A stretch of 64,000 bases of DNA from an uncultured bacterium (GCA_963716205.1 OY970290.1:367417-431416), one strand, 5' to 3'; positions 350 through 27,540 are shown, counted from the first letter of the stretch. Numbers and translations are program-made. Notes: generated by a model not told the origin, from the letters alone.

Positions 350-1462
350 TTATTTTAATTTTTTTAATAAATTATCGAGCGATTCCTTCTCCTCTGATGA
401 AAGAGTTACACTGCCGTTGCTATCTTGCCCGGTCTGTATTTCCCTGACAATTTTTGTCGCATCCTTGTCGCTGATATTTCCATACCCATATGACCCAAAA
501 GTCGTTCCAACATTTTCGTGTCCGAGACACAGACTTATTGCCCGTTTTTCTTTTTCCGTCAGTCTTATCTCACTCATCATATGAACAATGAGGTGTCGAA
601 ATGAGTGCGGATTAAAATATGACACTTTTGCGTCCGCACATCTTTTCACGAAAATTTTTCTTGCCCCACCACTGTCACACCAAGATTTTTTAGTTACAAA
701 TTCTTTGGCATGACCAACGTCTTCATTACTCGGCTTATTTGATGTTGATGGAAAGATGGGATCATCAGGTTCGTAATTTTTTGATTTAAGATATGCGATC
801 CATTCCATAACATATTTCTCTGGTTCATTCCATCCGATAGGAAAGAATGTGGAAAGAATTTTTTTAGAAGCTTTCGTCTTGACACCATCACCCGGATTCT
901 GATAAATTTCTTTTGTCCGTTCATTGAAATTTTTCATCTTCAAAGTAATGATAGCAGATATACGCATTCCTGTAATTAGAGCAAAAGAGATCAATGCTCT
1001 ATCCCTCCTATCTATCTCATTCTTTACTTCGATAGTGTCAATAATTTTTTTCACTTCCTCAAAGGTCGGCATGAGTCTCGTGGTGCCAGCAGTCGCAATA
1101 CTAACTTCATTATTGGGAAGGCGTAAAAATTCTACATTGTTTTTTAGCACTTTATTTTTGTAGCCGGGTTGATCTGAAAGCCACATAAAGAATTTTTTAA
1201 TTCTTCGCAAATAATTATACTGCGTCACAATGGTTAAAATTCCCAATTTCGTTTTTGTTTCTTTAACCTTCATCCACTTTATAAAGTCTATCGCTTTAGA
1301 CTTACTAAAGTTAGAAAAATCCTCATACTCAGAGAATGTTTCCCATAAAGAAACAGCTTCTGCGAACGAATCCAATGAACCTTCAACAAACCCCTTGGCA
1401 TACTTTAGATGTTCCAAAAAACTTCTCTTAATTTCCTCGTTTTTGTAATTTGTGTTTGGCAT
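350..1462 (-). CDS. tyrosine recombinase / phage-type integrase
   Basis: C-terminal catalytic motifs are present: R in RDRALISFALITGMRISA, HSFRHLIVH (HxxR) and LGHENVGTTFGSYGY (catalytic Tyr). There is an N-terminal SAM-like region. Confidence 0.75.
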   Translation of the reverse strand: MPNTNYKNEEIKRSFLEHLKYAKGFVEGSLDSFAEAVSLWETFSEYEDFSNFSKSKAIDFIKWMKVKETKTKLGILTIVTQYNYLRRIKKFFMWLSDQPGYKNKVLKNNVEFLRLPNNEVSIATAGTTRLMPTFEEVKKIIDTIEVKNEIDRRDRALISFALITGMRISAIITLKMKNFNERTKEIYQNPGDGVKTKASKKILSTFFPIGWNEPEKYVMEWIAYLKSKNYEPDDPIFPSTSNKPSNEDVGHAKEFVTKKSWCDSGGARKIFVKRCADAKVSYFNPHSFRHLIVHMMSEIRLTEKEKRAISLCLGHENVGTTFGSYGYGNISDKDATKIVREIQTGQDSNGSVTLSSEEKESLDNLLKKLK

Positions 1463-1463
1463 T

Positions 1464-3149: not shown

Positions 3150-3376
3150 CCCCCTACTTTACGTTACAAAACAATAAAATTCAACGCTTCCAATTTTTAT
3201 CGTTATGAGCTATCATTGCGAAGACAATTGAATAAGCAAGTAATCTAAACCGGCGAGCGATTGCTGGCATGATGAAAAGAAAGTCCTACGAAGACAAAAG
3301 ACCCATTATATGGGGTTTGTCTTCGTAGGCCGTATCGGGAAACCGGTGCGAGTGACGCAAGTCACTAACCCATGTA

Positions 3377-3676
3377 ATGGGCCTTTTGTCTGTCGGCAAA
3401 AACCTCCTTGGGTATTATCAGTTTTTAGCATTAAATAAAGTGGAAAAATCACCAAAATTGAGACTCACCGCATTATTATTGTGTTGGTTTTTTGGAGTAT
3501 TTGGCATACATCGTTTCTATGTCGGAAAAGTAGGCACCGGCATACTTTGGCTTTTCACTTTAGGATGTTTCGGGATAGGCGCATTGGTTGATCTCATTAT
3601 GATCGCTTCGGGTTCGTTCAGAGACGGACAAGGTAGACTTGTTCTGCAATGGACCAATTCAGCGACTAAAAACTAA
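3377..3676 (+). CDS. TM2 domain membrane protein
   Basis: The GVFGIHRFYVGKVGTGILWLFTLGCFGIGALVDLIMI pattern is typical of the TM2 domain: two TM helices with a G-rich core. Confidence 0.6.
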   Translation: MGLLSVGKNLLGYYQFLALNKVEKSPKLRLTALLLCWFFGVFGIHRFYVGKVGTGILWLFTLGCFGIGALVDLIMIASGSFRDGQGRLVLQWTNSATKN

Positions 3677-13948: not shown

Positions 13949-14013
13949 AACTGAATATTTTTTATAAACGTCTAATTATTATGGGGATGTCCTAGTTTAA
14001 GGTAGTGAATAAA

Positions 14014-14268
14014 TTATTGTTCAAACTCATTTCTCAATTCTTCTTTTAGTTCTTTTTTTGTATCCTTTAATACTGCGCCAAGTATTGTGTCAAAACCCAA
14101 GAATACACCGAGGTAAAAGACTATGAAAAATATCAAGAACCAAACAAAGTTTTCCTGTACGGCATTTACTATTGCAAAATAAAGCCCTATCGGTGGCAAT
14201 AATATGGATAAGACCTTAATGAGCCAGTCTAAAGCATCCCATAACCACCAATTTTTCCAGTTTTTCAT
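14014..14268 (-). CDS. small membrane protein (passenger in the IS-bounded segment)
   Basis: Two predicted TM helices (WWLWDALDWLIKVLSILLPPIGLYFAIV..FLIFFIVFYLGVFLGF). Confidence 0.4.
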   Translation of the reverse strand: MKNWKNWWLWDALDWLIKVLSILLPPIGLYFAIVNAVQENFVWFLIFFIVFYLGVFLGFDTILGAVLKDTKKELKEELRNEFEQ

Positions 14269-14293
14269 ATACCTAGATTATATCCTTATCCTT

Positions 14294-15154
14294 TTATTCC
14301 CACAAGTTAGGTTGATATTCTTGCCCCATCATTCTGTTGTAGTTATTTTCAAACTTGCGCTTGTCTCCAGAAACTTTAAGGGTTGCTACTACTTGCCATA
14401 TTTGTGAACGAATAGCGGGTAATCCAACCTTTTCACTTAAGTGAGAGTGATGTCTTTTTTTTCTTGATTTTGTAGATGTTGTTGGATTTTTTTCGTCCAA
14501 AACTTTCAACACTTCTCCTTTTTCAAAGGGTTCATAAATATATTTTCGTATGAACCCAGCATAGTATAATGGTCTATTACGAGAAGTTGTTTTTTGATTT
14601 CCATAAATGCGGTCCATTTGATAAAAAAGTTCATCGGGAAATTCTTTTGACCATTTTCTAACTTCTTCAGCTAGATAACTTTCAACGAGCATTCTGAATG
14701 CTTCGGGATGTTTGAATTTTTCGTATCCCAACTGTTCATAAATAAGAGCAGTAATACCTACCGCAGAAAATGCGTCAGACATTGTCTCACAAACTGTGGC
14801 AGTAGGTAACTGATTTTTGGTTAATACCCCTGCTCTTTCAGCATCACGATATACGCGACAAATCAACGGGAGTATTTTTGCATCATATCCAGTAGAAAGC
14901 CGTCCTCCATCATAAAACTCTATTCCTTTCAGCATCTCATCTAATTCAGGACGAATAAATTTTTGAAGATTCATCGCTCCGATAAAACTAGGTTTATCTG
15001 TCCTACTTGAACCTTTCCATGCTCTTCCTAACGCTTTCATCATCTTACCTTTATTCAAAATTGGAGTACCATCTTCAAGTACCGCACAATCTATCTCTAC
15101 CCCGTTCAATGTGATTGGACCGCTTCCCCATGCTTTTGGTATATTTTTTTCCAT
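14294..15154 (-). CDS. hypothetical protein (286 aa), passenger gene, possibly phage-associated
   Basis: Long ORF between the transposase and the IRL. No confident family. Confidence 0.45.
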   Translation of the reverse strand: MEKNIPKAWGSGPITLNGVEIDCAVLEDGTPILNKGKMMKALGRAWKGSSRTDKPSFIGAMNLQKFIRPELDEMLKGIEFYDGGRLSTGYDAKILPLICRVYRDAERAGVLTKNQLPTATVCETMSDAFSAVGITALIYEQLGYEKFKHPEAFRMLVESYLAEEVRKWSKEFPDELFYQMDRIYGNQKTTSRNRPLYYAGFIRKYIYEPFEKGEVLKVLDEKNPTTSTKSRKKRHHSHLSEKVGLPAIRSQIWQVVATLKVSGDKRKFENNYNRMMGQEYQPNLWE

Positions 15155-15172
15155 AAATGGCTTTAATTAAGG

Positions 15173-16045
15173 TTAATTTGATTGGACCGCTTGTAATACT
15201 AATGTATCAAACATTCCTGCATCGCCACGCTTATTGTATCGGAAACAAAACTCGTTGATGTAGGCGTTCAAATGCTTTGCTGTTACATGATGATACTGAC
15301 CGATAATACCACGTTTCAAAAGCGACCAAAAACTTTCAATCGTGTTTGTGTGGGCAATACCAGTAACATAGTTTCCTTTACCATGATTGACTTTACTGTG
15401 TTCAAAGTTCTTTTTGTCCAGTCCATTGTATGCACCCCATTCGTCCGTCATAATATGAGAACCTTTTTTTACATTTTGATTGATGAGCATTTGAAGCGAG
15501 CGAGCATTCACATTGTTTACTTTCTGCGCGCGGACTTCACCACCTCTTTTCAAAACTCCAAAAACTGGCGTTTTGTCTTTTGTACTTCTGCCTTGTCCGC
15601 CCTTTGTTTTATCGTTCCAGTGTTTATTTTTGTTTTTTCCACCGACATACGTTTCGTCCGCCTCAACGATACCCTCTAGCAATGCTCCCTGTTCTCGCAT
15701 AGCTCGGCGAATACGCATGAGCATGAGCCATGCAGTATTCTTGTTGACTTCGATGTCGCGAGCAAGCTGACGTGAACTCATCCCTTTTTTGGCGTTAAGG
15801 ATAAGAGAGATAGCAAGAAACCATTTCTGTAAGTCCAGTTTCGTCTTGTGAAAAATTGTTTTGACCGTTATACTAAAAGATGTATTGCAGGCATTGCAGT
15901 GGTATCGGCTTTCTTTTATAAATTTGGTAACTCGAAGCGAGTTACAATATGGACATTTTGGCTCGCCATTCCATCTGACTTTTTCTAGATGGTCTAGGCA
16001 ATCCTGCTGTGTCGGAAACTGTTTGTATACTTGTATTATGTTCAT
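15173..16045 (-). CDS. IS1595-family (ISXO2-like) DDE transposase
   Basis: N-terminal zinc ribbon CPYC...CNAC. The ETYVGGK, MTDEWGAY and HTNTIESFWSLLKR motifs are typical of IS1595 Tnp. Confidence 0.8.
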   Translation of the reverse strand: MNIIQVYKQFPTQQDCLDHLEKVRWNGEPKCPYCNSLRVTKFIKESRYHCNACNTSFSITVKTIFHKTKLDLQKWFLAISLILNAKKGMSSRQLARDIEVNKNTAWLMLMRIRRAMREQGALLEGIVEADETYVGGKNKNKHWNDKTKGGQGRSTKDKTPVFGVLKRGGEVRAQKVNNVNARSLQMLINQNVKKGSHIMTDEWGAYNGLDKKNFEHSKVNHGKGNYVTGIAHTNTIESFWSLLKRGIIGQYHHVTAKHLNAYINEFCFRYNKRGDAGMFDTLVLQAVQSN

Positions 16046-16161
16046 GGTTTTTTATTACTACCTTTATCTAGGTATAGTACACCATGACGAGACTTGCAGT
16101 CAAGACAATTTCTGTGTTGTAACTGTTTTATTCACTACCTTAAACTAGGACATCCCCATTA

Positions 16162-16806
16162 TTATTTCTTAACCTTATAAAATTTCATCTCTACTCCACT
16201 GTATCGCTCGATCAATCCCTCATAAATTAAACCTTCAAGGGGTTCATAATCCTGATATTGATCTATCTGTGCCAATGCATTTCTATAATCATCTTTATTT
16301 TCTTTTTCGATTTTTATGGATATACCGACTAATCCGTATCTCTCCAAAATCAGATTTGCCGCTAATCGTGCCGTTCGTCCGTTCCCTTCTCTAAAAGGAT
16401 GGACGTTGGTAATCAGATGGTGGAGCCATGCCGCAGTTCGTATAATCTTTTCAATCGCATCAAGCACTTCTTCCGTTACATCTTTGGCAATAATCAGTCC
16501 TTCAACTTTCTCCAAATTTTTTAATCGTATGATAAGTTCGTCCTTCGCTTTTTTCATATATTCATGCACCTGTGAATGATGCGGCGGCAGATGTTTTGAA
16601 TCAGTTATTTCCAGATTTTCATCACGATACTTTCCGGCAATTTCAGGCCACGCATGTTCAAAAATGCACTTATGAATTTCTGATATGGTATCTATGGTGA
16701 TCGGTTTGTGAGAATGGGCGTAGGTTCTCACAAAACGAGAAGCGCGGATAACTCCAATCGCTTCTCGTTTCTGCATTTCCTGTTCGTCTTTCGGTCTTTC
16801 CACCAT
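16162..16806 (-). CDS. Fic/Doc family protein (AMPylase-type toxin core)
   Basis: Fic active-site motif HPFREGNGRTARL. Confidence 0.8.
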   Translation of the reverse strand: MVERPKDEQEMQKREAIGVIRASRFVRTYAHSHKPITIDTISEIHKCIFEHAWPEIAGKYRDENLEITDSKHLPPHHSQVHEYMKKAKDELIIRLKNLEKVEGLIIAKDVTEEVLDAIEKIIRTAAWLHHLITNVHPFREGNGRTARLAANLILERYGLVGISIKIEKENKDDYRNALAQIDQYQDYEPLEGLIYEGLIERYSGVEMKFYKVKK

Positions 16807-17190: not shown

Positions 17191-17222
17191 GTTCTTACAT
17201 CGTTCAACATTCGGAGCAGAAA
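17191..17222 (+). repeat. cassette-boundary repeat R0 (degenerate copy)
   Basis: gttcttacatcgttcaacattcggagcagaa, compared with the consensus gttctaacttcctctatccannggagcagaa. Confidence 0.5.
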
Positions 17223-17291
17223 TTAGACAAATATTATTTATTTTGATAATCTAAATTTGGAAGCAGTTATCTTATTTGAAGGGGTGAGATT

Positions 17292-17480
17292 GTGGAAATT
17301 AAAGGAAACTACGTAAAGGTTGTCTATAGTTCTGAATCAGTCCTTTTGAATACGCCGGCAACGATTGATATTTATGAGAAAGGTAAACTAATTGTAAAAT
17401 TAAACGCAACGGTTGTACCACAAACAGGAGCTGATTCAAAACAATATCCATCCGTTCAAATTAAGGTGACTAGTCCTTAG
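17292..17480 (+). CDS. small hypothetical protein (cassette 0)
   Basis: RBS aggggtgag upstream of a GTG/TTG start. Confidence 0.3.
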   Translation: MEIKGNYVKVVYSSESVLLNTPATIDIYEKGKLIVKLNATVVPQTGADSKQYPSVQIKVTSP

Positions 17481-17513
17481 ATGTTAAATTTAAGTGAAAG
17501 GAAGTGATGAAAA

Positions 17514-17777
17514 ATGTCAGAGCATTTGATATATTTCTGTAAGAGTTGCGGTAAAATGAGGGCCGAAGCAAAGGATACTCGTTGTGCCGAATGCGAGAAA
17601 TTATTGAATCCTCCCATCGCTGATATCGTTGATAAAGACGCTGAAATTCAGAGATTAAGAGATGAGAATGCAAGACTTGAGGAAAAGATTAAGTCTCTTG
17701 AGAGCGACGAAAGAGCTAAGAGCGAATATCGGGAATATATGAGTGCCGTCGGCAAAGACACTGTAGCTGGTGGATAG
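17514..17777 (+). CDS. zinc-ribbon (CxxC...CxxC) coiled-coil protein (cassette 0)
   Basis: CKSCGK...CAECEK. RBS gaaaggaagtga. A terminator-like hairpin follows. Confidence 0.45.
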   Translation: MSEHLIYFCKSCGKMRAEAKDTRCAECEKLLNPPIADIVDKDAEIQRLRDENARLEEKIKSLESDERAKSEYREYMSAVGKDTVAGG

Positions 17778-17846
17778 TTCACCTTTTAGTAGAAAATAAG
17801 CTCCGGATCTAAATGATTCGGGGCTTTTATATTCTCCAATTACCTA

Positions 17847-17885
17847 CCAAACAAGTTCTAACTTCCTCTATCCAAGGGAGCAGAA
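17847..17885 (+). repeat. cassette-boundary repeat R1
   Basis: ccaaacaagttctaacttcctctatccaagggagcagaa. Confidence 0.7.
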
Positions 17886-17913
17886 TAATATCAACTTTGA
17901 TATACTCTTGTAC

Positions 17914-18429
17914 ATGCAGAAAAGCATTCAAGAGGTAATTGAAATTATAAAAACTAAAGAGAAAACTTTGTTTATTTTGTGCGGTCTTCCCTATTCTGGC
18001 AAAACATACATAGCCAAAGAAATTATGAAATATGTTCCTATGATCTATGTCAGCATTGATAATATTTTCCACGAGCATGGCTATGATTGGAATGTTAATA
18101 AACTACCGGATGAAATAGCTTGGACAGAAATATTTGATGTATCGTATGAGAAAGCTCGTAAAGCACTCAATCAATCCTTAAATGTTTTATATGATTCCAC
18201 AAACCACACTAAGATTAGTCGCGATGATTTACGTAAAGTAGCTGGGAGTGTAGGAGCAGATACAAACGTTATTTTTATAGATGTTCCAGTTGATACTATT
18301 TATAAAAGATGGGAGGAAAACAAAGTTAATAAAACAAGATCGATAGTTGATAGAAAGTTGGTAGATATGACTATAAAGGCTTTTGAAAAACCTATAAAGG
18401 GTGAAAATGTATTAATTTTGGCTAATTAA
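17914..18429 (+). CDS. P-loop kinase (AAA_33 / zeta-toxin-like / polynucleotide-kinase-like) (cassette 1)
   Basis: Walker A ILCGLPYSGKTYIAKE and a DSTNHT region. The ATG at 17914 lies 7 bp after an extended -10 (TGaTATACT), so the mRNA is probably leaderless. Confidence 0.55.
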   Translation: MQKSIQEVIEIIKTKEKTLFILCGLPYSGKTYIAKEIMKYVPMIYVSIDNIFHEHGYDWNVNKLPDEIAWTEIFDVSYEKARKALNQSLNVLYDSTNHTKISRDDLRKVAGSVGADTNVIFIDVPVDTIYKRWEENKVNKTRSIVDRKLVDMTIKAFEKPIKGENVLILAN

Positions 18430-18430
18430 T

Positions 18431-18464
18431 AAGGTTCTAACTTCCTCTATCCATGGGAGCAGAA
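18431..18464 (+). repeat. cassette-boundary repeat R2 (between convergent genes)
   Basis: aaggttctaacttcctctatccatgggagcagaa. Confidence 0.7.
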
Positions 18465-18479
18465 ATAGATTTTGTTTTA

Positions 18480-18923
18480 TCATTCAATTTTTTTACCCCA
18501 TTTTTGCCTATACTCTTCTTCACCCTTTCTCAGTGTTTCTTTAAGGTCATTAATTGATTTTTCTAATTTTTCAGCTATATCTAAACCCATGTGTGAATTA
18601 TAAAAATTAAATTCGTCTGTTTTTACTTTTTCTTTAATTACACCCTCTGTCTTTTCATGAGACTCTTTTTCTGTTGTCGTATTAGTATAAACTTTATTCT
18701 CACCTTGAATTAATCTTTCGTAGGCATTATTTATATTTTGTGTAATCTCAGTTGCCCTTGGATCGGTATTAACATCAGGGTGTAATTTTTTTAATAAGTC
18801 CATCCACGTGTTTTTAATATCCTCAGGTGTAGCTGTTTCTTCCAATCCCAATACTTCATAAGGATTAGCGCTATAAAATTGGTCATAATTTTCTTGGTTT
18901 GTATTTGGTGATTCAAAACTCAT
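18480..18923 (-). CDS. J-domain (DnaJ-like) protein, 147 aa (cassette 2)
   Basis: NPYEVLGLEETATPEDIKNTWMDLLKKLHPDVN with the HPD tripeptide. Confidence 0.65.
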   Translation of the reverse strand: MSFESPNTNQENYDQFYSANPYEVLGLEETATPEDIKNTWMDLLKKLHPDVNTDPRATEITQNINNAYERLIQGENKVYTNTTTEKESHEKTEGVIKEKVKTDEFNFYNSHMGLDIAEKLEKSINDLKETLRKGEEEYRQKWGKKIE

Positions 18924-18961
18924 ATCAAAAGTATATCAAAAAATATCTAATTTACTAGAAA

Positions 18962-18996
18962 ACATTTTCTAACTTTCTTTATCTAAGGGAGTAAAA
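18962..18996 (+). repeat. cassette-boundary repeat R3 (degenerate)
   Basis: cattttctaactttctttatctaagggagtaaaa. Confidence 0.5.
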
Positions 18997-19070
18997 ATTA
19001 ATACTTGACACTGTATTATATTATGTGCTATTATTTACTCGGCTAAATTTACAGTAAGAAGGAGACGGAA

Positions 19071-19469
19071 ATGAAATTAATATCTTTGCTGTTTTGTTCC
19101 TTGTTGTTTACAGGCTGTGCAGCAATCCGAGATCAAGTTCAAGCTCCGCAAGGTAAAATTGTTATTAAACACAGCGGAATTGAAGAAAAACTCCAACAAA
19201 AAATTCAAGAAGTTAAAAAGTATTGGGGAGTTCGACAAGTTGGCGTCGGGTATCCGAATAAATGGAGTCCTGATGAAATGTCGGCAGAAGTAACAGCTGA
19301 GTATCGCGCCAAAGTAGATTATATGGAAAAAGTTCTCCATAAAGACTCTGCGGTGCTTGTTGGTATTGGGGTCGATTATGTCCTTGATGACCACTATAAA
19401 GTTTATGCCGCAATCGCGTTTGACATCAAAAAGAAACTTTTTGGCAAACGCAAAAGCCCTCATTCGTGA
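19071..19469 (+). CDS. lipoprotein (cassette 3)
   Basis: Signal peptide with lipobox LLFTGC. Promoter TTGACA-18-TATTAT and RBS aaggagacgg. The terminator at 19455-19484 overlaps the TGA stop. Confidence 0.55.
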   Translation: MKLISLLFCSLLFTGCAAIRDQVQAPQGKIVIKHSGIEEKLQQKIQEVKKYWGVRQVGVGYPNKWSPDEMSAEVTAEYRAKVDYMEKVLHKDSAVLVGIGVDYVLDDHYKVYAAIAFDIKKKLFGKRKSPHS

Positions 19470-19484
19470 GGGTTTTTCTTTTAT
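19455..19484 (+). terminator. rho-independent terminator (ccctca ttcg tgaggg + TTTTTCTTTT)
   Basis: Stem-loop followed by a T-run. Confidence 0.6.
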
Positions 19485-19492
19485 CTAATTCC

Positions 19493-19534
19493 CCACCAAA
19501 CAAGTTCTAACTTCCTCTATCCATGGAAGCAGAA
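19493..19534 (+). repeat. cassette-boundary repeat R4
   Basis: ccaccaaacaagttctaacttcctctatccatggaagcagaa, followed by TTGACA-17-TAAACT. Confidence 0.7.
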
Positions 19535-19613
19535 ATAAAACTTGACAAAAACATTATTTGATATTAAACTATTAGTAGGAAAGAAATCAAATTATAACTG
19601 GTTGGAGGAGAAA

Positions 19614-19841
19614 ATGTTTACTTACCTAAGATCGCCGTTGGGATACGTCCTCATAACAGTTTTTGTTGTCGGTTTTTTCCTTTTAATTTTGCCGTTTCAT
19701 TTTGGTTTCCATTGGTGGATTATCATTACCACCATTATCGGCTCAGCTCTCTGTGCTTGGAGTGGGCTCTTAATGTATGGAATTTATGATATCGAAAAAG
19801 AAGACAGACATTTTTTAGATATCGAAATGAAAAAATTATAA
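19614..19841 (+). CDS. small two-TM membrane protein (cassette 4)
   Basis: The ATG is preceded by ggttggaggag. The hydrophobic core is VLITVFVVGFFLLILPF...WWIIITTIIGSALCAW. Confidence 0.45.
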   Translation: MFTYLRSPLGYVLITVFVVGFFLLILPFHFGFHWWIIITTIIGSALCAWSGLLMYGIYDIEKEDRHFLDIEMKKL

Positions 19842-19980
19842 AGTGACGATCCCCCGCCCCTTGTTCTTAGGAACTTGTGGGCGGTTTTCTTTTACCCAAA
19901 TCAATATATTCCTCCAGCAAGAGGGAGGCAGAAAAGAAAAACCCTGCATTACACAGGATTTTTCCAATGCAATACAGGGT

Positions 19981-20349
19981 TTACGAAGAATCTCTAAGAA
20001 AACGTTGCCAGCGATGAGTCTCTTCCTTCTGTTTGTTAGAGCATTCATCCCACACTTTTGCTAGTTCACTAAGACGCGCAATGGACATGGGTAGTTCGAA
20101 ACGTTTTTCAGAATATGTATACGTCTCGTCCAACATTCGATAATTCTTTTCGGCACGTTTTCTTTCCTTAGGATCTTGATCATCTCTGGCGATTATTTGA
20201 GCACCGTACCACGCTCTCCTAATGAGATCTTCAAGTATCGTTCTACCCACCATTTTCTCATTATAGAGAAGAGCTTCTTTTGTTCTTCCGTGTTTCCGAC
20301 CAAACCAATAAACGAACATTAGAGCGACGAGCAACGCTATGATTTCCAT
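19981..20349 (-). CDS. N-terminally membrane-anchored hypothetical protein (cassette 4, convergent)
   Basis: The MEIIALLVALMFVYWF TM anchor is followed by a charged domain. Confidence 0.4.
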   Translation of the reverse strand: MEIIALLVALMFVYWFGRKHGRTKEALLYNEKMVGRTILEDLIRRAWYGAQIIARDDQDPKERKRAEKNYRMLDETYTYSEKRFELPMSIARLSELAKVWDECSNKQKEETHRWQRFLRDSS

Positions 20350-20425
20350 AAAATCTCCTTTTAGAAAGATCAACTTCTTTTACTAAAATTTACATTACCC
20401 CTTAAGATTTATTTAGTCAAATGTT

Positions 20426-20463
20426 AAAACAGGTTCCAACTTCCTCTATCCATCGGAGCAGAA
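20426..20463 (+). repeat. cassette-boundary repeat R5
   Basis: aaaacaggttccaacttcctctatccatcggagcagaa, followed by TTGACA-17-TATTGT. Confidence 0.7.
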
Positions 20464-20569
20464 CATATTATTGACAATTAATTTAATATCTGATATTGTA
20501 ATGATTAGTTGTTACTAGCGATTATTTCCCAAAAAATCGCTAAATTTAAAATTTTTGGAGGTTTTGACA

Positions 20570-20976
20570 TGAGGAGTTTTAGCAATAAAGTAACACTGGA
20601 AGAAGTGAGACTTCTTTTGTATCAAAATTATAACCCCGAAAGAGAGTCATATAATCCTTCTGAACATTGGAGAGGATGCAAAGGTCTACTTATGTTTGCT
20701 GATTATATTGAACGCTGGATCGGAGATAATATCTTTGATTGGTCAAAAAAGAAAAATGACCTTTTATGGTTACCAATTTGTGATTTTGTTGACCATTATC
20801 CTGTTTCAGCTCATACCATGAAGTTGCTGCAAAAGTATTACCAAAACGCTGGAGAATGTACTATGTATCTTTTTCTTGGAGGGAAAATCAATTTTCGGAA
20901 ACATAAGGGTGTTGGAAAGAAAGCTATTTTAGAAGTCAAAAAAGCTTTCGCCAGTTGTGGTTTCCGTTTCCTCTAA
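20570..20976 (+). CDS. small protein with C-terminal helix-hairpin-helix-like motif (cassette 5)
   Basis: LGGKINFRKHKGVGKKAILEVKKAF resembles an HhH GxG motif. RBS ggaggttttgacATG. Confidence 0.4.
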
Positions 20977-21117
20977 GAAGTTCTTTGGTTACTGGTTGAT
21001 GCCTCCTGAACCATCTGTGGCCATTCTTTCCAAAAAAAGGATTCGCCCAAGAAAATAACAGAGTTAAAAGTTAAGATTCCAAACCTTAACTGATGACTGT
21101 AGTTATAACCGGGAGTT

Positions 21118-21157
21118 AGGCGGTCTTCTCTACCAAGAAGAACCGCCTATTTTATTG
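21118..21157 (+). terminator. orphan rho-independent terminator (ggcggtcttct...agaagaaccgcc + ATTTTATT) about 140 nt after the cassette-5 ORF
   Basis: Strong hairpin and T-rich tail. There is no ORF of 60 aa or more between 20977 and 21117. Confidence 0.45.
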
Positions 21158-21160
21158 CAT

Positions 21161-21198
21161 AAAACAAGTTCTCACTTCCTCTATCCAAGGGAGCAGAA
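21161..21198 (+). repeat. cassette-boundary repeat R6
   Basis: aaaacaagttctcacttcctctatccaagggagcagaa. Confidence 0.7.
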
Positions 21199-21273
21199 AT
21201 TATTTGACTAATTATTTAATTATAGTAGTTTAGACATTAAATTTGTTCTTAATAAAGAAAGGTGGTGATTTTT

Positions 21274-21498
21274 ATGTCAACGAACACTGAGGTAAAACAA
21301 TTTACCGATGATGAAAAAAGGAAAATTGCCCTTAAGATTTTGAATTCTAAACTTAAGGATATGGGCGTTATGCTTGCTAAAAACCAAGATGTAGGGCTTT
21401 ACTTTATCAAGAAAGAACTTGGGCTTTCTGACGAAGACACCAAGGCTTTTGCCGAGGGACTTCTTTCTGGTAATTTTTTTAATTCACTTTTCAAGTAA
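21274..21498 (+). CDS. small hypothetical protein, 74 aa (cassette 6)
   Basis: RBS aaaggtggtga 8 nt before the ATG. Terminator at 21521-21549. Confidence 0.4.
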   Translation: MSTNTEVKQFTDDEKRKIALKILNSKLKDMGVMLAKNQDVGLYFIKKELGLSDEDTKAFAEGLLSGNFFNSLFK

Positions 21499-21520
21499 TA
21501 ATTTCTATCAAAGTAATGAA

Positions 21521-21549
21521 AAGCCCCTGAGTAATTGAGGGGCTTTTTT
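21521..21549 (+). terminator. rho-independent terminator (agcccct...aggggct + TTTTTT)
   Basis: 7-bp stem followed by a T6 run. Confidence 0.6.
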
Positions 21550-21566
21550 CATGTCTAATTTCCTTT

Positions 21567-21604
21567 CAACCAGGTTCCAACTTCCTCTATCCATCGGAGC
21601 AGAA
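21567..21604 (+). repeat. cassette-boundary repeat R7 (between two convergent terminators)
   Basis: caaccaggttccaacttcctctatccatcggagcagaa. Confidence 0.7.
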
Positions 21605-21618
21605 GTTTATAAATAAAA

Positions 21619-21642
21619 CGAGCCCCGTTAAATTGGGGCTCG
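21619..21642 (-). terminator. minus-strand terminator (cgagcccc gttaaatt ggggctcg, T-rich tail on the minus strand) for gene 21662..22618
   Basis: Perfect 8-bp stem. On the minus strand TTTTATTTAT follows. Confidence 0.55.
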
Positions 21643-21661
21643 GTGATACAAAATGATACAG

Positions 21662-22618
21662 TTATTTTTCCTCGATTTCAAGAATTTTTTTCTTGAGGAC
21701 TACCGTTTCCTCCTTAGTGAATGGTAGCCTTCCAGAATTCCATCCCCGGAGGGACTGCGCATCTGTTAGTTTACGTTCCTCCGCGATTGCTATATCCTCA
21801 ACTATATTTCCAACACGGAACAGAAAATTATCTAAGGAAGAAATATATCCCTTAGTTTCGTAAAGCCAGCATTCGCGTTTCCCGTCTTTTTTTGCTATTT
21901 CGAGGGTACTATTCAAAGCTTCTGGAAGTAAATAATCTTGTGAGGCTCTGCGAGATCCTCCGCCACTATTTTCCCAGATACAGTATTCAGGCATTGCCAA
22001 CGGTTTTTCCTTTATTACTAGAGGATCTAGAGTGGTCCTAAAATCACTGAAAACAGACATTCTCTGTCGCATGATGTCAAATCGTTCCTCTCTTTCTTTT
22101 ATCTGTTTTTCAACTGAGTTAAAAAACTCTGTTAAAAGCCAAATCAAAGAGTTGCGAAGCGCGACCTTTTTCATGAAGACAGTATCTTCGATAAACTTGG
22201 CTAAATTAGTTTTATGACCAAGCGATCGAACCAAAAACACATGCGATTTTTTGACGATTTGTTCTGCAAGCTTGGCTGAACTGTAAAAGGAAAAAGTTTT
22301 TTCCTCCCTCACAATCCACTCACCAGATCGTCCAAGAGCGATGTCCATAAAACTGGAATGATCGCTTAATAATCTGATTGCTCGGCAGTTCCTAAATTGT
22401 TCCTGAACCTCGCAATAAAATGTTTCAGTTATTTTTTTACCCAGCCATTGAACAAGTGGTAAAAGTATTTTAACCACCTCTTCAAGGACAACGGTCAAAT
22501 TTTCAGCAGTGAAATCGAAATCCATTTCTTTTCCGATGTTCATCGCTTGAAATCTTTCACGTGCAGATAATTCTTGCAACTGTGAAGCTTCCTTCAAATT
22601 TTGTTTAGGCGTACCCAT
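21662..22618 (-). CDS. hypothetical protein, 318 aa (cassette 7)
   Basis: Long ORF with a terminator. No family recognised. Confidence 0.5.
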   Translation of the reverse strand: MGTPKQNLKEASQLQELSARERFQAMNIGKEMDFDFTAENLTVVLEEVVKILLPLVQWLGKKITETFYCEVQEQFRNCRAIRLLSDHSSFMDIALGRSGEWIVREEKTFSFYSSAKLAEQIVKKSHVFLVRSLGHKTNLAKFIEDTVFMKKVALRNSLIWLLTEFFNSVEKQIKEREERFDIMRQRMSVFSDFRTTLDPLVIKEKPLAMPEYCIWENSGGGSRRASQDYLLPEALNSTLEIAKKDGKRECWLYETKGYISSLDNFLFRVGNIVEDIAIAEERKLTDAQSLRGWNSGRLPFTKEETVVLKKKILEIEEK

Positions 22619-22757
22619 GTTACTACCTCCATGAGAAGTGCATAGTGGAACAGTAAGACACTTGGCGAACCATTTATGCCTTTATTGAACCGTACCATTT
22701 TCAATGAACTATCTCATTGGCGATAATATAACAATAATAGAATAAGTCAATTTGTTA

Positions 22758-22778
22758 CCAAACAAGTTCTAACTTCCT
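22758..22778 (+). repeat. truncated repeat copy R8 (left 21 nt only)
   Basis: ccaaacaagttctaacttcct, followed by unrelated sequence. Confidence 0.5.
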
Positions 22779-22810
22779 GGATTGAACAATCATTTAGTAG
22801 TTGTCGTGGA

Positions 22811-22924
22811 ATGTCCACGTACAATTGCACTAAATGTGATACCTCAGTTCCCGCTGGTCTTTTTACGAAAAGAAGGGAAAATTCAATTTGCACAGGAAAG
22901 CCTAAAAAATTTTCTCGATTTTGA
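22811..22924 (+). CDS. candidate 37-aa Cys-containing micro-protein (MSTYNCTKCDTSVPAGLFTKRRENSICTGKPKKFSRF)
   Basis: This ORF is below the 60-aa threshold of the track. It ends 20 nt before a strong terminator at 22945-22987. The RBS is weak. Confidence 0.25.
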   Translation: MSTYNCTKCDTSVPAGLFTKRRENSICTGKPKKFSRF

Positions 22925-22944
22925 GAACTCAAGTAAATATATTA

Positions 22945-22987
22945 CCCGCCAAACGAGAAAAACTCGTTTCGGCGGGTTTTTCTTTTA
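22945..22987 (+). terminator. rho-independent terminator (cccgccaaacgag aaaaa ctcgtttcggcggg + TTTTTCTTTT)
   Basis: 13-bp stem followed by a T-run. Confidence 0.55.
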
Positions 22988-22988
22988 C

Positions 22989-23026
22989 CTCAAACACGTT
23001 CTAACTTCCTCTATCCAAGGGAGGAG
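22989..23026 (+). repeat. cassette-boundary repeat R9 (last copy, abuts the core genome)
   Basis: cctcaaacacgttctaacttcctctatccaagggaggaga. Confidence 0.65.
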
Positions 23027-23087
23027 ATGAATTTGGTGAATCCGACCTGTTTCCGCCAAAAACCAAAATCATAAAACATTCTTATTT

Positions 23088-23351
23088 TTAGCCATTTTTA
23101 CGATGAGGACAGCCTGGCCAGCAGCATGGACGACGCATACCCTTAATAAGCTCGTCTCGCACCCGCCTAATATGATCGCGTCTTGTTTCTTCTTGCTTGA
23201 CAGAAATAGTCCAGCAAATCCATTCATTGCGCGCAAGCGGCGTAATATTTTCCCACGCTGATAGAGCTTTTGGAGAAGCCAAAAGAGCCTTGCGCAAATC
23301 CGCAGGCACTTTATGTATATTTGCCAAACCTTCTGATATTTTTTTTACCAT
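23088..23351 (-). CDS. YdeI/OmpD-associated family protein
   Basis: VPADLRKALLASPKALSAWENITPLARNEWICWTISVKQEETRRDHIRRV matches the YdeI C-terminal pattern. Confidence 0.5.
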   Translation of the reverse strand: MVKKISEGLANIHKVPADLRKALLASPKALSAWENITPLARNEWICWTISVKQEETRRDHIRRVRDELIKGMRRPCCWPGCPHRKNG

Positions 23352-23905
23352 ATAAATAGGATTAAAGTTTTTGTTTTTTTCTTGTATTCAGGATATTCAT
23401 TCGGAAAAAGCTGCTGCATATATTTTTCTTCCACGGGAATCCGATACAGGAAATTGATGCAACAGATGATAAAAATCATAAGATAGAGGATGCCCCCGGC
23501 AAGTACTGATCCAAAAAGAGCAAGAAGTATTCCAGTATAGATTGGATGACGTACAAAATGATACGGACCCGATGTTATAAGCTCATGATCTTCTTTCATA
23601 GATGGAGTTCCACTCCAGTTTCTTCCAAGATCTCGTCTTGCCCAGATTGCAAAGCTAAGGCCGATGGCGCAAAGAATAACACCGATTATTTGGACAGCAT
23701 AACTGAATTGATATCCAAATTTCCAGAATGAATTTATCTGAAGCAATATGATCATAACAACAATCAGCATAATACGAATTGCAGCGTTTTTTCGCCATTC
23801 TTTTGTACGGATATTCTTCTTGACCCCGATTGCGGAGACGAGCCAATAGAGAATAAAGATGAGCCAGAAAATACCGAGAAGATTGGTAAAAATTGATGAA
23901 TGCAT
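23345..23905 (-). CDS. membrane methyltransferase of the ICMT/PEMT family
   Basis: Multi-TM protein with GPYHFVRHPIYTGILL (RHPxY motif). Confidence 0.6.
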   Translation of the reverse strand: MHSSIFTNLLGIFWLIFILYWLVSAIGVKKNIRTKEWRKNAAIRIMLIVVMIILLQINSFWKFGYQFSYAVQIIGVILCAIGLSFAIWARRDLGRNWSGTPSMKEDHELITSGPYHFVRHPIYTGILLALFGSVLAGGILYLMIFIICCINFLYRIPVEEKYMQQLFPNEYPEYKKKTKTLILFIW

Positions 23906-23908
23906 AAA

Positions 23909-24232
23909 TTATTCAACGACCACTGCGGTGCCATAACAGAGCACTTCTGTCACTCCTTGCATCATTTCCGTCGTATCGTAGCGAATGCCGATAACCGCAT
24001 TTGCTCCTTTTTCCGTTGCGTGTTTGATCATGAGATCATACGATTCTTCCCTCGTCTTTTCGCACAATTCAGTGAATAAGCTGATATTGCCGCCGACAAT
24101 TGTCTGCAAAGCTCCGCCGATTGAACCGACAATCGATCGTGAACGGACGATAATTTCTTTTACGATGCCGAGATTTTTCGTAATCTTCTTTCCCGGCAAA
24201 TCAAATGCCGTTGTTGTATTGTTGTGATCCAT
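23909..24232 (-). CDS. YbjQ/UPF0145 family protein
   Basis: [15 protein letters not shown]...[10 protein letters not shown] is the typical YbjQ C-terminus. Confidence 0.65.
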
Positions 24233-24287
24233 ACTGAGGATTATAGCAGATTTTTAGAAGATGCGCTGAATAAAAAAATCTTCTTAT

Positions 24288-24737
24288 TTGGAACAGAAAT
24301 TTTGGCTATATTTTCAATCTTTTGATATAATACCTTCAGGTCAATTTAATAATTATAATAAAATTAGCATGGATATTACCACTGTTCTCACTCAAATATT
24401 AGGAATTATCTTTTTGGTTCTCGGTGTGTCGATGTTTATCAACAGCAGGAACGAAGTTTCCGTTCTCGGATCGATCGATTCAAATAAAGGTTTGATGTGG
24501 GCGTACGGGTTTATTGCTTTGACAATGGGAGCGACAATTATCGCATTAAATAATATCTGGACTTCCGGCTGGCCACTAGTCATTACTATTATCGGCTGGC
24601 TCTGTTTGCTCAAAGGAGTGTGTATTTTGGTTTTTCCGCAGTCAATGGTTTCAATTTATAAAAAATGGAATAAACCGGGCTTGATCGGCTTTACCGGATT
24701 CGTGATAATTGTTTTAGGTTTAATTTTTCTTTTATAG
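24288..24737 (+). CDS. multi-TM membrane protein
   Basis: Hydrophobic segments throughout. The start may be an internal Met near 24370. Confidence 0.4.
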   Translation: MEQKFWLYFQSFDIIPSGQFNNYNKISMDITTVLTQILGIIFLVLGVSMFINSRNEVSVLGSIDSNKGLMWAYGFIALTMGATIIALNNIWTSGWPLVITIIGWLCLLKGVCILVFPQSMVSIYKKWNKPGLIGFTGFVIIVLGLIFLL

Positions 24738-25029
24738 AAAAATTTTTGTTTTTATCTGAATGCAAAAGCCATCAATACGATAGTCAAAGCATTGAGAATC
24801 ACCAATGCTAATACCAATGCCGTTTTCGAGTGCATTTCGCTAGGATTCATTAAAATATAGATCGTGTAGATTATTGCCACAATGGCTGCACCGAGAAAAT
24901 TTCCTTTTACCATGCTTACAATGTAACATCAAATATCTTTGAAGGCAAGAAAAAGCAAATTTGATTTATACAAATATGTGATGTAGACTATTGTTCAGCA
25001 AAGTTCTTTTATAAACAAGGAGACAAAAC

Positions 25030-25353
25030 ATGAATGATACAGTCACTGTTTTTAATCTGCCAGAATACAAGGAAATGTCCGAGCGTTTGTTGTTAAAGAT
25101 TGGTAATAAACCTTTTCAACAGGAATTTTACCAAATCTTGTTAAAACATGCGGGTCAGGCACGAATTCCCCGCGGCGTAGTTACCATGCTGTCATCGGCT
25201 ATTGATGTCTACATGAGTCAGGAGAAAAGACCATTGATTTATAAAACGTTACTCTATAAGCAAATTCCCGGAATCATTGATGTTCTTGTCCGTGATATTA
25301 AATTAGCTAAAGAAACAAAAAAACTTTGGAAAGAAAAAGATTCTCGGGTATGA
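25030..25353 (+). CDS. hypothetical protein (107 aa)
   Basis: RBS caaggagacaaaacATG. A terminator hairpin lies at about 25373-25410 (aaagccc...gggctttttttt). Confidence 0.4.
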   Translation: MNDTVTVFNLPEYKEMSERLLLKIGNKPFQQEFYQILLKHAGQARIPRGVVTMLSSAIDVYMSQEKRPLIYKTLLYKQIPGIIDVLVRDIKLAKETKKLWKEKDSRV

Positions 25354-25745
25354 GCCCGACAATCAAGAATTTTAAAGCCCTTTTTCATGAGGGGCTTTTT
25401 TTATACAAAAAAACCGGCATATTCCAGTTTCAATCGTCTCATTAAATAAAGATGAAGCTGAAAATAATCCGGCTGTCGCGAGATTTCTTATTGGGTTTAA
25501 CCCTGATTAAGAATCGCGATATTTTTAAATACTCGGTTCCCTTTTAACCTGCAGATATATTATCATGTTTATATATTTTGTCAACTACTTTTTAATTTTC
25601 TTTTTCAAATATTAAATATAAGCTTATTTTAAGCCATATTTCCCTATTGTGTATAACCGTTTGACTATTTTTTTATAGAATATAAAATATAAAGAAGATA
25701 AGTCGATTATCATAATAATTATTAGTAATAAATATTATAAATAAT

Positions 25746-26487: not shown

Positions 26488-27540
26488 ATGTCAATAGAAT
26501 CAACTTCGACAAAAGAAAAAGTTCAAGGAAAAAAAGAAGAAATTATTGAAAATCTTTTTTTATTTTTGAAGGAAAAAAGAGAAAAAGAAGAAAAAGACAT
26601 TGAAGAAAATTTTCCGGAAATCATGAAAAGTCTGCCGAAAGATCTCCGCAATTTTATTGAGGAAGATTTTCAGCGGTTCAAGTCATACAATCTTACCGCC
26701 GAGCAATTACTTTCGGAATTGAAACATGATGTAGAAACAATGAAAATAGCCTACGAAGATAAACGGTTTGAAATTCCCAACGGCAGTTATATGCGTTATG
26801 AAATAAAACACGGCATTGATGAACTGGTTGCAAATTTCAGCGATGAAAAGATAAATTTCATGAAAATAAAAGGTTTGGGAATCATCAGTCTTGATGTCAA
26901 CGGCTTGAAAACCGTCAATGACATGATTAGCCACGAAGCCGGCAATGAATACTTGAGAAGAATCGTGAACGTATTTAAAAAAGGTGCGACGACAAAAGAA
27001 CTTGAAGATAAACGCATCAATGTATTCATTTCTTCAAACGGTGGCGATGAATTTTCAATTATTTTGAGTGATGATGTCAATCTTATGGAAACCGCCGGCA
27101 GATCGACTTTTATAGAAAGTATTTTAAAAAAATATCAAAAAGAAGTCTCTGAAATAGACACCGGCGATCTTATCGATTTTAATAAGCCGGAAATATCCGA
27201 AAAATTAAAAGCATTTATTATTCCGGAAAAATTCAAATTCACCCCGACTATTTCCGGTGGCACCGCATGCATTGAAGAAGTGCTTGTCGGCAACGGATTT
27301 ATTCCCAATGAAACGGCGGGATATTCCGACAATCTTAATTTTATCATCAACAGTCTTTTTGAACTTGCCGACAAGCGAAACAGAGAGGATAAAAATACAT
27401 TCAAGGAAGAGCTTGAAAACAGTGCCGATCCACAGAAAAATTTTTTGGCGGTTTTGCTGAAAAGAAATATTGAAATAGCGGTTATTGAGGAGGAAAATAA
27501 AAAACTGAAGCTTATCGTTGAAAAGCTCAAGAAAAAATAA
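26488..27540 (+). CDS. GGDEF-domain protein (diguanylate cyclase-like)
   Basis: SLDVNGLKTVNDMISHEAGNEYLRR and ISSNGGDEFSIIL (GGDEF motif). Confidence 0.55.
   Translation: MSIESTSTKEKVQGKKEEIIENLFLFLKEKREKEEKDIEENFPEIMKSLPKDLRNFIEEDFQRFKSYNLTAEQLLSELKHDVETMKIAYEDKRFEIPNGSYMRYEIKHGIDELVANFSDEKINFMKIKGLGIISLDVNGLKTVNDMISHEAGNEYLRRIVNVFKKGATTKELEDKRINVFISSNGGDEFSIILSDDVNLMETAGRSTFIESILKKYQKEVSEIDTGDLIDFNKPEISEKLKAFIIPEKFKFTPTISGGTACIEEVLVGNGFIPNETAGYSDNLNFIINSLFELADKRNREDKNTFKEELENSADPQKNFLAVLLKRNIEIAVIEEENKKLKLIVEKLKKK

Follow-up and report, generated by a model that had tools for sequence, protein, structure and literature searches.

Single-gene units bounded by a conserved 28-nt motif in a tRNA-Asn-anchored variable region of an ultra-small bacterium

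Bacteria of the candidate phyla radiation (CPR, Patescibacteria) have tiny genomes, and the way in which they acquire accessory genes is poorly understood. Large serine recombinases (LSRs) are a feature of the composite islands of the staphylococcal cassette chromosome (SCC), where a conserved gene, rlmH, has at its 3′ end the short direct repeat that the tandem cassettes have in common; units lacking ccr (pseudo-SCC) exist, and all are much larger than the units described here. Tandem accretion at tRNA genes is known for integrative and conjugative, integrative and mobilizable, and cis-mobilizable elements (ICEs, IMEs and CIMEs; PMC5704250), and in the tycheposon islands of Prochlorococcus the tandem elements are separated only by partial tRNAs (10.1101/2020.12.28.424599). 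The ssrA islands of Dehalococcoides are tandem too, with direct repeats, an element-borne motif 5′ of the repeat and units that lack an integrase, and the open reading frame (ORF) of a serine recombinase (DsiB) crosses attL at ssrA (PMC3146451). In the rAID loci (for recombinase-associated acquired interbacterial defence) of Bacteroidales a tyrosine (Tyr) recombinase lies immediately upstream of an array of short immunity genes that all point the same way and have conserved motifs between them (PMC12247911). Here we analyse 64,000 nt of DNA from an uncultured bacterium (GCA_963716205.1 OY970290.1:367417-431416; henceforth the window), in which small units between 17.2 and 23.0 kb are delimited by co-oriented copies of a short motif. 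We think it probable that these copies are att-type junctions, left where single-gene units lacking an integrase were inserted site-specifically, one after another, at the 3′ end of tRNA-Asn(GTT). No published description of such an array in CPR bacteria was found in the literature searched.

The motif (consensus GTTCTAACTTCCTCTATCCAnnGGAGC) is present in the window as eight significant copies, one truncated copy and one variant site, all on the plus strand (Table 1). Seven occurrences of its 20-nt core GTTCYMACTTCCTCTATCCA have no more than one mismatch (copies 1, 2 and 4 to 8), on the plus strand only and between 17,855 and 23,017, where 0.02 occurrences would be expected by chance. A repeat finder stretched the family to 51-75 nt and added the diverged copy 3 and the truncated copy. 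An nhmmer profile was built from 18 copies, taken from the window and from other genomes. It returned the eight copies with E values from 4e-13 to 8e-7 and detected none elsewhere in the 64 kb, i.e. none in the 58 kb outside the array. An earlier note on this DNA had described about ten repeats in the same orientation over 5.8 kb and had proposed such a profile as a check; its count is borne out, and its start coordinates agree with ours once the 8-nt leader that it included (ccaaacaa) is allowed for. The truncated copy that it placed at 22758 is likewise recovered. Of its two degenerate copies, that at 18962 is our copy 3, while that at 17191 does not belong to the family in the same sense, being the attR of an integrated element (see below). 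A further degenerate copy that can be seen by eye near 19.90 kb receives no support from the profile.

All copies share a 27-nt layout, GTTC-N17-core, ending at (C/G)GGAGC. In the window conservation reaches from about −7 (AAACA) as far as +31 (..CAGAA), and a weaker similarity can be followed back to −20. In nine copies from other genomes it runs exactly from GTTC (+1) to GGAGCC (+28), with background on both sides. The conserved block is asymmetric, its left arm being long and its right edge falling sharply at GGAGC, and is not the pair of conserved arms around a variable centre that had been described. The weak inverted pair reported with it is real, though no more than weak. Folding of seven copies on the plus strand and five on the minus strand gave minimum free energies of −4.6 to −9 kcal/mol with mostly non-significant z-scores, two of the nine proposed pairs are broken in most copies, and a pair-count test on 18 copies, in which 80% of cells were paired where shuffles had 78%, revealed no covariation. 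A folded attC-like or RNA element is rejected on these grounds, the hairpins sought being weak only. Rfam returned only noise at the motif, both in a scan of the whole window at gathering thresholds and in a permissive scan of the array. We also rejected a Xer/dif-type (pdif) module. A dif-type site has 28 bp arranged 11-6-11 with a conserved XerD arm, and alternates in orientation between modules; direct reading of the motif reveals no inner palindrome of the ATAA-N6-TTAT type, and every copy has the same orientation. Resemblances to dif/Xer sites, CIRCE, LexA boxes, extracytoplasmic function (ECF) promoters and uptake sequences were considered by eye, and in each case the defining consensus or distribution is lacking.

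Almost every intergenic junction of the 5.8 kb contains one copy, whatever the orientation of the adjoining genes. Tandem, divergent and convergent junctions number three each (the convergent ones at copies 2, 7 and 8), and no co-oriented gene follows the motif where the genes converge. The orientation of the motif never flips with that of the genes, and the gap to the next −35 box ranges from 2 to 8 nt. From these properties we conclude that the motif is a boundary element and not a promoter motif, as had been proposed. The units themselves are 0.4-1.4 kb long, mostly contain a single gene, and are built in a regular manner, in that a promoter follows the site at 2-8 nt and a terminator precedes the next site by 20 or 30 nt. 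That each unit has its own promoter and terminator was claimed before, and this stands in part. The best-scoring sigma-70-like sites (TTGACA-N17-TATxxT) lie directly 3′ of copies 3, 4 and 5, and several hairpin-plus-T-tract terminators precede copies. In total, however, the promoter scan is not above background (18 against 20.1 in shuffles), and the excess of terminators is mild (9 against 4.6).

Copies 5 and 7 share an identical 32-mer, GGTTCCAACTTCCTCTATCCATCGGAGCAGAA (20432-20463 and 21573-21604), are the sole pair with the C/TC combination of variants, and flank a block of two units; this is the trace that a recently inserted circle of two cassettes would leave. The truncated copy is followed by a stretch of about 220 bp (to 22997) that has a terminator and no convincing gene, and is probably a deletion scar. 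We note that the change of the right end of copy 8 creates a Shine-Dalgarno-like GGAGG, followed by ATG and an ORF of 15 codons (MNLVNPTCFRQKPKS; 23018-23075).

The core pattern was sought in larger collections. Among 185,579 species-representative genomes it was found in only two contigs (L001 and L002), both from one metagenome-assembled genome (MAG) of Candidatus Vogelbacteria. Metagenome contigs gave four matches (L003-L006), of which three are convincing; the remaining one (L005) is probably a chance 20-mer, lying inside a long ORF of an unrelated contig without extended similarity. By our estimate a few chance matches are to be expected for a pattern of this length in collections of such size. 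Viral contigs gave no match to the 20-mer core, to a relaxed core or to the reconstructed attP described below, and the phage and plasmid collections gave none to the 6-kb array. The loci from other genomes have nothing in common with the window except the motif (27-53 nt), and the cargo differs wholly. In L001 two co-oriented copies surround an SDR gene plus a PNPOx-like gene, in L002 two copies each end a methyltransferase gene, and in L003 three copies delimit an Imm5-like immunity gene, an AraC/glyoxalase-like gene and a pair encoding OmdA and DUF1905. Copies are clustered and co-oriented in every genome, with single copies in L004 and L006. An OmdA/YdeI-family gene adjoins a motif copy both in L003 (5148-5482) and in the window (22998-23351), with 53% amino acid identity and in opposite orientation relative to the motif. 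L004 encodes a Y1 transposase of the IS200/IS605 type (Y1_Tnp, 3146-3586, minus strand) 2.6 kb from its single copy; no such gene was seen among the scanned ORFs of the window (1-37.8 kb) or at the other loci.

The array is anchored at a tRNA gene. A Logan contig from the source sample (L018) is identical to the window over their overlap, reaches 1.8 kb past window position 1 and ends in tRNA-Asn(GTT), which thus lies 1.76-1.83 kb to the left of position 1, on the plus strand and in the orientation of the motif copies. The closest relative available, the 606-kb contig L015, has orthologs with 73-93% identity and is syntenic with the window only from about 25,650 rightwards, where both have a small membrane-protein gene (at 25,747 in the window), a GGDEF-like gene (26,488-27,540 in the window, right of the array; 73% identical), a Bestrophin-like gene, an aminotransferase gene, two VTT genes, PPDK and GH130. 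To the left of about 25,650 the window has nothing in common with L015. The array had been said to abut the core genome at 23.0 kb, and this is not so. At the corresponding place in L015, tRNA-Asn(GTT) has a TTGACA promoter no more than 11 nt behind it. A lipoprotein-like gene of 105 aa comes next, and after it a terminator and a diverged copy of the motif, CCCAAACAGGTTCTGACTTCCTCCGGCC. In L002 the tRNA-Asn lies immediately 5′ of the two methyltransferase cassettes, each of which is ended by a co-oriented motif copy. Comparison of these contigs shows that in three genomes (the source, L002 and L015) the array is part of a variable region whose starting point is the 3′ end of tRNA-Asn.

The motif resembles the 3′ part of this tRNA. 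Alignment scores are 20-25, the best among nine tRNAs, compared with 10-19 for six other tRNAs, and 2-64 of 5000 shuffles reach the observed values (a frequency of 0.0004-0.013); the identical parts are only GTTC and a 6-7-nt core, (C/G)GGAGC(A/C). We doubt that the motif is a tRNA fragment. It is called neither by ARAGORN nor by Rfam, it is 5 nt longer than the 3′ part of tRNA-Asn, and it is tRNA-like only at its ends. In the source genome GGAGCA is found at the end of the tRNA and at seven sites, i.e. six motif copies and the 17,191 site. In the Vogelbacteria MAG the tRNA has an encoded CCA and ends in GGAGCCA, and GGAGCC(A) is present in three of four motif copies. As read from these two genomes, the base after GGAGC tracks the terminus of the host tRNA.

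A duplication in L002 begins at the same core. About 130 nt lying 3′ of tRNA-Asn are duplicated after the distal motif copy, with strong identity from CGGAGCC onwards (31 of 32 nt) and then for some 50 nt more past a 41-nt indel. To the left of CGGAGCC there is only a loose alignment of the tRNA T-arm with the motif, and it includes a 5-nt indel. A circle that had arisen in one genome by the joining of a tRNA site to a motif site downstream of it, and had then entered the tRNA site of another genome, would leave such a duplication. Inside the duplicated flank there are additional short copies of the acceptor 3′ end of tRNA-Asn (ACCCGCGGAG), after the tRNA and after the distal motif (2925-2945 and 1295-1315), which may be remnants of further integration events.

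The DNA between the tRNA and the array provides an integrated element with readable ends. The site at 17191 is marginal against the profile (E 3.2), yet it has the same 27-nt layout, GTTC-N17-CGGAGC, which is matched seven times against 1.09 expected. It shares the 7-nt core CGGAGCA with the 3′ end of tRNA-Asn. At the tRNA end, attL reads ..CCCTACTCC-CGGAGCA-AGGTTGAACAGAC.. (ccctactcc CGGAGCA aggttgaac), and attR, with its core at 17212, reads ..ATCGTTCAACATT-CGGAGCA-GAAATTAGACA.. (gttcaacatt CGGAGCA gaaatt). Joining the left half of attR to the right half downstream of the tRNA gives an attP, GTTCAACATT-CGGAGC-AAGGTTGAAC, in which 10-bp inverted arms (9 of 10 complementary) surround a 6-bp spacer, CGGAGC. 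Neither attL nor attR has symmetry of this type, and the reconstructed attB has none either. Because CGGAGCA is found on both flanks and the ends rebuild a symmetric attP, we read the 19 kb as one integrated element, or a composite. Its circular form would read ..CGTTCAACATTCGGAGCAAGGTTGAACAG.. through attP. In the reconstructed attB (empty site tRNA-Asn..CTCCCGGAGCAGAAATTAGACA) a promoter and the first small-gene unit follow directly after the tRNA, as they do in L015, and we infer from this that Unit 1 was the tRNA-proximal cassette before insertion of the element. The left arm of the motif is identical to that of the element's attP at 13 of 21 positions (ungapped count).

Two kinds of recombinase are encoded by the element. 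The gene of the first large serine recombinase (LSR1, 568 aa; L018 9285-10991) lies just outside the window on its left, and the last 13 nt of its ORF are inside the 3′ end of tRNA-Asn; a second (LSR2; 5547-6917) has weak matches to CcrC and CcrB models. The Tyr integrase, the only Tyr recombinase of the window, lies 16 kb from the array and is generic and Xer-like, with 50 bits on XerD against an NCBIfam cut-off of 330 bits. It has 372 homologs; among the matches listed those other than itself are 55-67% identical, and at the loci examined they are always found in a module with a helix-turn-helix (HTH) gene and an LSR. This module, i.e. an HTH/excisionase-like gene, a Tyr integrase of about 370 aa and an LSR, is conserved in Patescibacteria (window 350-1886, L018, L019 and L021-L024).

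We suggest that the motif comprises the element-borne left arm of an att site, loosely like the tRNA T-arm, together with its crossover core. A unit would then consist of a right arm (AGAA..), promoter, gene, terminator, a linker of about 20 or about 30 nt, and the 28-nt left arm plus core. Each would have entered as a small circular DNA by site-specific recombination, with crossover in or next to GGAGC, either at the tRNA-Asn site or at an existing junction, and each entry would have pushed older units away from the tRNA. The junction of such a circle would join the left arm of one copy (e.g. copy 2) to the right flank of an upstream copy, ..GGAGCAGAATAATATC. No recombinase gene is present in the units; they would accordingly be cis-mobilizable, or else mobilized in trans, with the enzyme supplied by a resident or visiting element. 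The candidates are LSR1, whose ORF enters the tRNA, and the adjacent Tyr integrase; an inverted repeat around a short core, as in the reconstructed attP, fits either class of recombinase. Site-specific accumulation of cassettes, as the earlier note had proposed, is favoured by the convergent junctions, by the motif being all that arrays of unrelated cargo have in common, and by the presence of the core on both flanks of the integrated 19-kb element. It is upheld as a tRNA-Asn-anchored accretion array, and not as an integron.

A more ambitious form of this explanation is that the locus is a working gene-capture platform of CPR bacteria, analogous to integrons and arisen independently of them. 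The 3′ end of tRNA-Asn would then be the analogue of attI, and the 28-nt motif that of attC, read as double-stranded DNA and not folded, with self-expressed single-gene cassettes moved one by one by a recombinase (LSR or Tyr integrase) supplied in trans. We put this forward as tentative, and consider that the mobility of single units, taken by itself, is doubtful.

A number of observations weigh against serial insertion at tRNA-Asn. The canonical junctions have no clear dyad around GGAGC, unlike the attP of the 19-kb element. Their sole dyad is weak and centred on TCTATCCA, so that a central crossover is possible; close to this point the truncated copy breaks off as well. Nor does the motif reproduce the tRNA 3′ end faithfully, being 5 nt longer and identical to it only in GTTC and the core. 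No recombinase was found within several kb of the arrays in L002, L003 and L015, and neither a tRNA nor the motif lies beside the homologs of the Tyr integrase at the other loci examined, so this enzyme cannot be tied to the array. No tRNA-Asn was seen within the short contigs L001 and L003, and anchoring at this tRNA is perhaps not universal. Homologs of the 318-aa protein of Unit 9 (33-44% identity) are ordinary chromosomal or core genes in other CPR genomes, with neither the motif nor any other repeat near them at the loci inspected. Lastly, the assembled contigs of one sample revealed no excision product, circular junction, empty site or strain polymorphism. The Logan contigs of the source sample, retrieved by exact-protein look-ups, retrace the window identically and break only where two copies have at least 31 nt in common.

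As an alternative, the motif copies would be fossil scars, i.e. full-size, integrase-bearing elements inserted in succession at tRNA-Asn would each have decayed by deletion to one or two genes, leaving inert attR- or attL-type sequences between single-gene units that as such were never mobile. This would follow the usual three-step route to CIMEs (PMC5704250). Deletions do occur, as seen at the truncated copy and the stretch beyond it (22757-22997), copy 3 has decayed, and there is no recombinase beside the arrays of other genomes. Scars should drift, however, whereas in eight copies 28-31 nt are still almost the same. That the units are built so regularly argues against decay alone as well, as do the absence of any visible recombinase pseudogene fragment from 17.2-23.0 kb and the recurrence of the same tight architecture in three other genomes with unrelated cargo. 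We regard this explanation as unlikely, if not negligible. The motif and the tRNA might instead provide short homology for RecA-dependent exchange of accessory genes after DNA uptake, with no site-specific recombinase involved. CPR bacteria commonly have competence genes, no dedicated recombinase is adjacent, and the motif alone is common to the arrays. Yet 28-37 bp is at the lower limit for efficient homologous recombination, and random exchange does not predict a sharp asymmetric edge at GGAGC that is also the att core of an integrated element; the boundary of the L002 duplication falls at the same core. Such exchange is improbable.

It is more improbable still that the motif serves as an operator, UP-like element or insulator that is bound by a regulator and co-regulates accessory genes. 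A TTGACA-like −35 box is present within 2-8 nt after four or five copies, and the three best promoter predictions fall right after copies; against this, three of the nine copies lie between convergent genes, the orientation is independent of that of the genes, and the −35 box lies at distances that differ by 6 nt. In L003 a stop codon and a terminator flank the motif, and near-perfect asymmetric conservation over 28 nt is atypical for operators. A selfish repeat that spreads by itself and piles up in intergenic DNA, like repetitive extragenic palindromes (REPs) or miniature inverted-repeat transposable elements and e.g. by means of a Y1 transposase, could account for the weak palindrome, the single copies in L004 and L006, and the Y1_Tnp gene of L004. 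This is hardly credible for copies that are strictly clustered and co-oriented, with none in the 58 kb of flanking DNA, with neither inverted doublets nor a stable hairpin, and with occurrence in only one of the 185,579 species-representative genomes plus three convincing metagenome contigs. On what the 64 kb and the other loci show, with Y1_Tnp found in L004 alone, a dispersed repeat of the REP/RAYT type, which would have many copies throughout the genome, a stable palindromic hairpin and an associated Y1 transposase, was rejected. Least likely of all, to the point of being almost dismissed, is a true integron or a cluster of attC sites lacking an integrase (CALIN), in which the repeats would be attC sites recombined by IntI. 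The small, mostly single-gene units between co-oriented repeats and a cargo typical of chromosomal integrons speak for it, and integron-like was the frame adopted in the earlier note. There is no IntI, the best NCBIfam matches being to generic Xer models far below their cut-offs, and the site (28-37 nt) has neither R″/L″/L′/R′ boxes nor a stable hairpin. Units with their own promoters, one third of the genes inverted, and the lack of an attI/Pc arrangement complete the case against it. The same note had itself remarked that the site is unlike a classical attC and that no IntI is adjacent, and both the NCBIfam matches and the folding agree.

The cargo of the array is of the accessory type, including toxin-antitoxin and immunity types when all genomes are considered, and three genes of the window array are on the opposite strand. 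Of the products named earlier the AAA_33 kinase, the DnaJ domain, the lipoprotein and the Fic protein are confirmed, while the helix-hairpin-helix protein has no Pfam, PHROG or NCBIfam match. The 19-kb element, beginning at tRNA-Asn, contains LSR1, a 103-aa ORF, the Tyr integrase, an HTH/xis-like gene (1464-1886, 140 aa), a LOOT RNA, a ParB-like gene and LSR2, and further a 1576-aa candidate defence protein (PDC-S37), a TnsA-like gene, an IS1595 element and Fic (16162-16806), which matches PDC-S04/SoFic. With its matches to PDC-S37 and PDC-S04/SoFic, the element looks like a defence island. The LOOT RNA is immediately 5′ of a TM2-domain gene (3377-3676). The IS1595-family element has a P63C-domain passenger gene (14294-15154) beside its transposase gene (15173-16045).

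Table 1. Coordinates of the motif copies, the units that they delimit and neighbouring features, in window positions
Feature	Position	Strand	Description	Score or detail
Variant site	17191..17218	+	GTTCTTACATCGTTCAACATTCGGAGCA; attR of the ~19-kb element	
Motif copy 1	17855..17885	+	tandem junction, 5′ of AAA_33 kinase cassette	E 4e-13
Motif copy 2	18434..18464	+	convergent junction of kinase and DnaJ-domain genes	begins 5 nt past kinase stop codon
Motif copy 3	18966..18996	+	diverged, 7 mismatches; divergent junction DnaJ(−)/lipoprotein(+)	E 7.6e-7
Motif copy 4	19504..19534	+	tandem junction	TTGACA-17-TAAACT 7 nt later
Motif copy 5	20433..20463	+	divergent junction	
Motif copy 6	21168..21198	+	tandem junction	
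Motif copy 7	21574..21604	+	convergent junction ahead of the terminator of the 318-aa gene	
Truncated copy	22757..22778	+	left 21-22 nt only	E 0.005
Motif copy 8	22998..23028	+	last of array	right end changed to GGGAGGAGATG
Unit 1	17292..17777	+	two small ORFs, 62 aa and 87 aa	87-aa one coiled-coil-like
Unit 2	17908..18429	+	AAA_33/KTI12-like P-loop kinase	E 4e-13
Unit 3	18480..18923	−	DnaJ (J-domain) protein, 147 aa	E 5e-14
Unit 4	19071..19469	+	lipoprotein, 132 aa	lipobox LLFTGC
Unit 5	19614..19841	+	75-aa membrane protein	
Unit 6	19981..20373	−	130-aa unknown protein	no significant motif copy between Units 5 and 6
Unit 7	20569..20976	+	135-aa unknown protein	
Unit 8	21274..21498	+	74-aa unknown protein	
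Unit 9	21662..22618	−	318-aa unknown protein	
Remaining variable DNA	23029..25646		OmdA-ICMT-YbjQ operon and small genes	last motif copy to resumption of synteny
Tyr integrase of ~19-kb element	350..1462	−	part of HTH/Tyr integrase/LSR module	
LOOT RNA	3242..3366	+	Rfam RF03000, inside ~19-kb element	85 bits, gathering score 46
Helicase-nuclease, 1576 aa	7899..12629	−	DUF4011, AAA_11/12, MTES_1575	PADLOC PDC-S37 full-length, 1162 bits
IS1595-family element	13974..16166		~37-nt inverted ends (13974-14010 / 16130-16166)	ends 94.6% identical

The locus is a tRNA-Asn-anchored hotspot in several related genomes of ultra-small bacteria, in which self-contained modules (among them a kinase, a J-domain protein, a lipoprotein, methyltransferases and an immunity protein) are stacked behind one conserved 28-nt junction; beside them lies an integrative element that carries defence genes and has att sites legible in the sequence itself. 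Should the units move singly, the locus would represent a second answer, evolved independently, to the problem that integrons solve, the capture and stockpiling of single genes, with a defined site and two candidate enzymes. If they are immobile, the locus is a compact and instructive case of tandem accretion and decay at a tRNA gene.

Comparison with known systems places the array closest to islands at tRNA-like genes. SCC composites resemble it too, with rlmH in place of a tRNA as the target. In common with the ssrA islands of Dehalococcoides it has tandem units 3′ of a tRNA-like gene, co-oriented direct repeats related to the 3′ end of that gene, and just 5′ of the repeat a conserved, element-borne motif that is not alignable to the target gene. 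About half of the units there lack an integration module and are read as cis-mobilizable, and the integration module contains ParB-like genes. The ORF of a CcrB-like large serine recombinase crosses attL into the target, as that of LSR1 does into tRNA-Asn. The differences are a target that is tRNA-Asn and not tmRNA, a core of 6-7 nt (plus GTTC) where the repeat there is a faithful 20 bp, single-gene units of 0.4-1.4 kb in place of islands of many kb, and a Tyr integrase beside the serine recombinase.

The likeness to CIMEs and tycheposons lies in site-specific integration at a tRNA 3′ end, with newcomers pushing older elements inward, in elements separated only by partial tRNA or att copies, in integrase-less units that keep their att sites, and in an island position next to the tRNA that is conserved. 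Their units, by contrast, are usually kb to tens of kb long and recognisable as decayed elements, and are separated by genuine partial tRNA copies, whereas the sites here have a distinct 28-nt consensus conserved between genomes and occur at the density of an integron (9-10 sites in 5.8 kb). With integrons the array shares small, mostly single-gene cassettes, each ending in an element that resembles a recombination site with a sharp 3′ edge, a fixed chromosomal point of entry (the 3′ end of tRNA-Asn, corresponding to attI), and accessory, toxin-antitoxin and immunity-type cargo. An attC site, however, is a stable, imperfect hairpin of 57-141 nt with R″-L″/L′-R′ boxes that is conserved in structure, whereas the motif is conserved in sequence, does not fold in that manner, and adjoins self-expressed, variously oriented cassettes anchored at a tRNA. 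Integron cassettes have no promoter of their own and are expressed from Pc beside attI. Like rAID loci the array has short accessory genes with conserved intergenic motifs, and L003 contains an Imm5-like immunity gene; that gene is confined to L003, there is no adjacent recombinase here, and both orientation and function of the genes are mixed. We know of no tRNA anchor described for rAID. A hotspot of this kind is already known, and its form here is unusually miniaturised. What is unusual is the scale, with nine or ten junctions packed into 5.8 kb, one self-expressed gene to a unit, and a distinct 28-nt junction consensus that is conserved between genomes.

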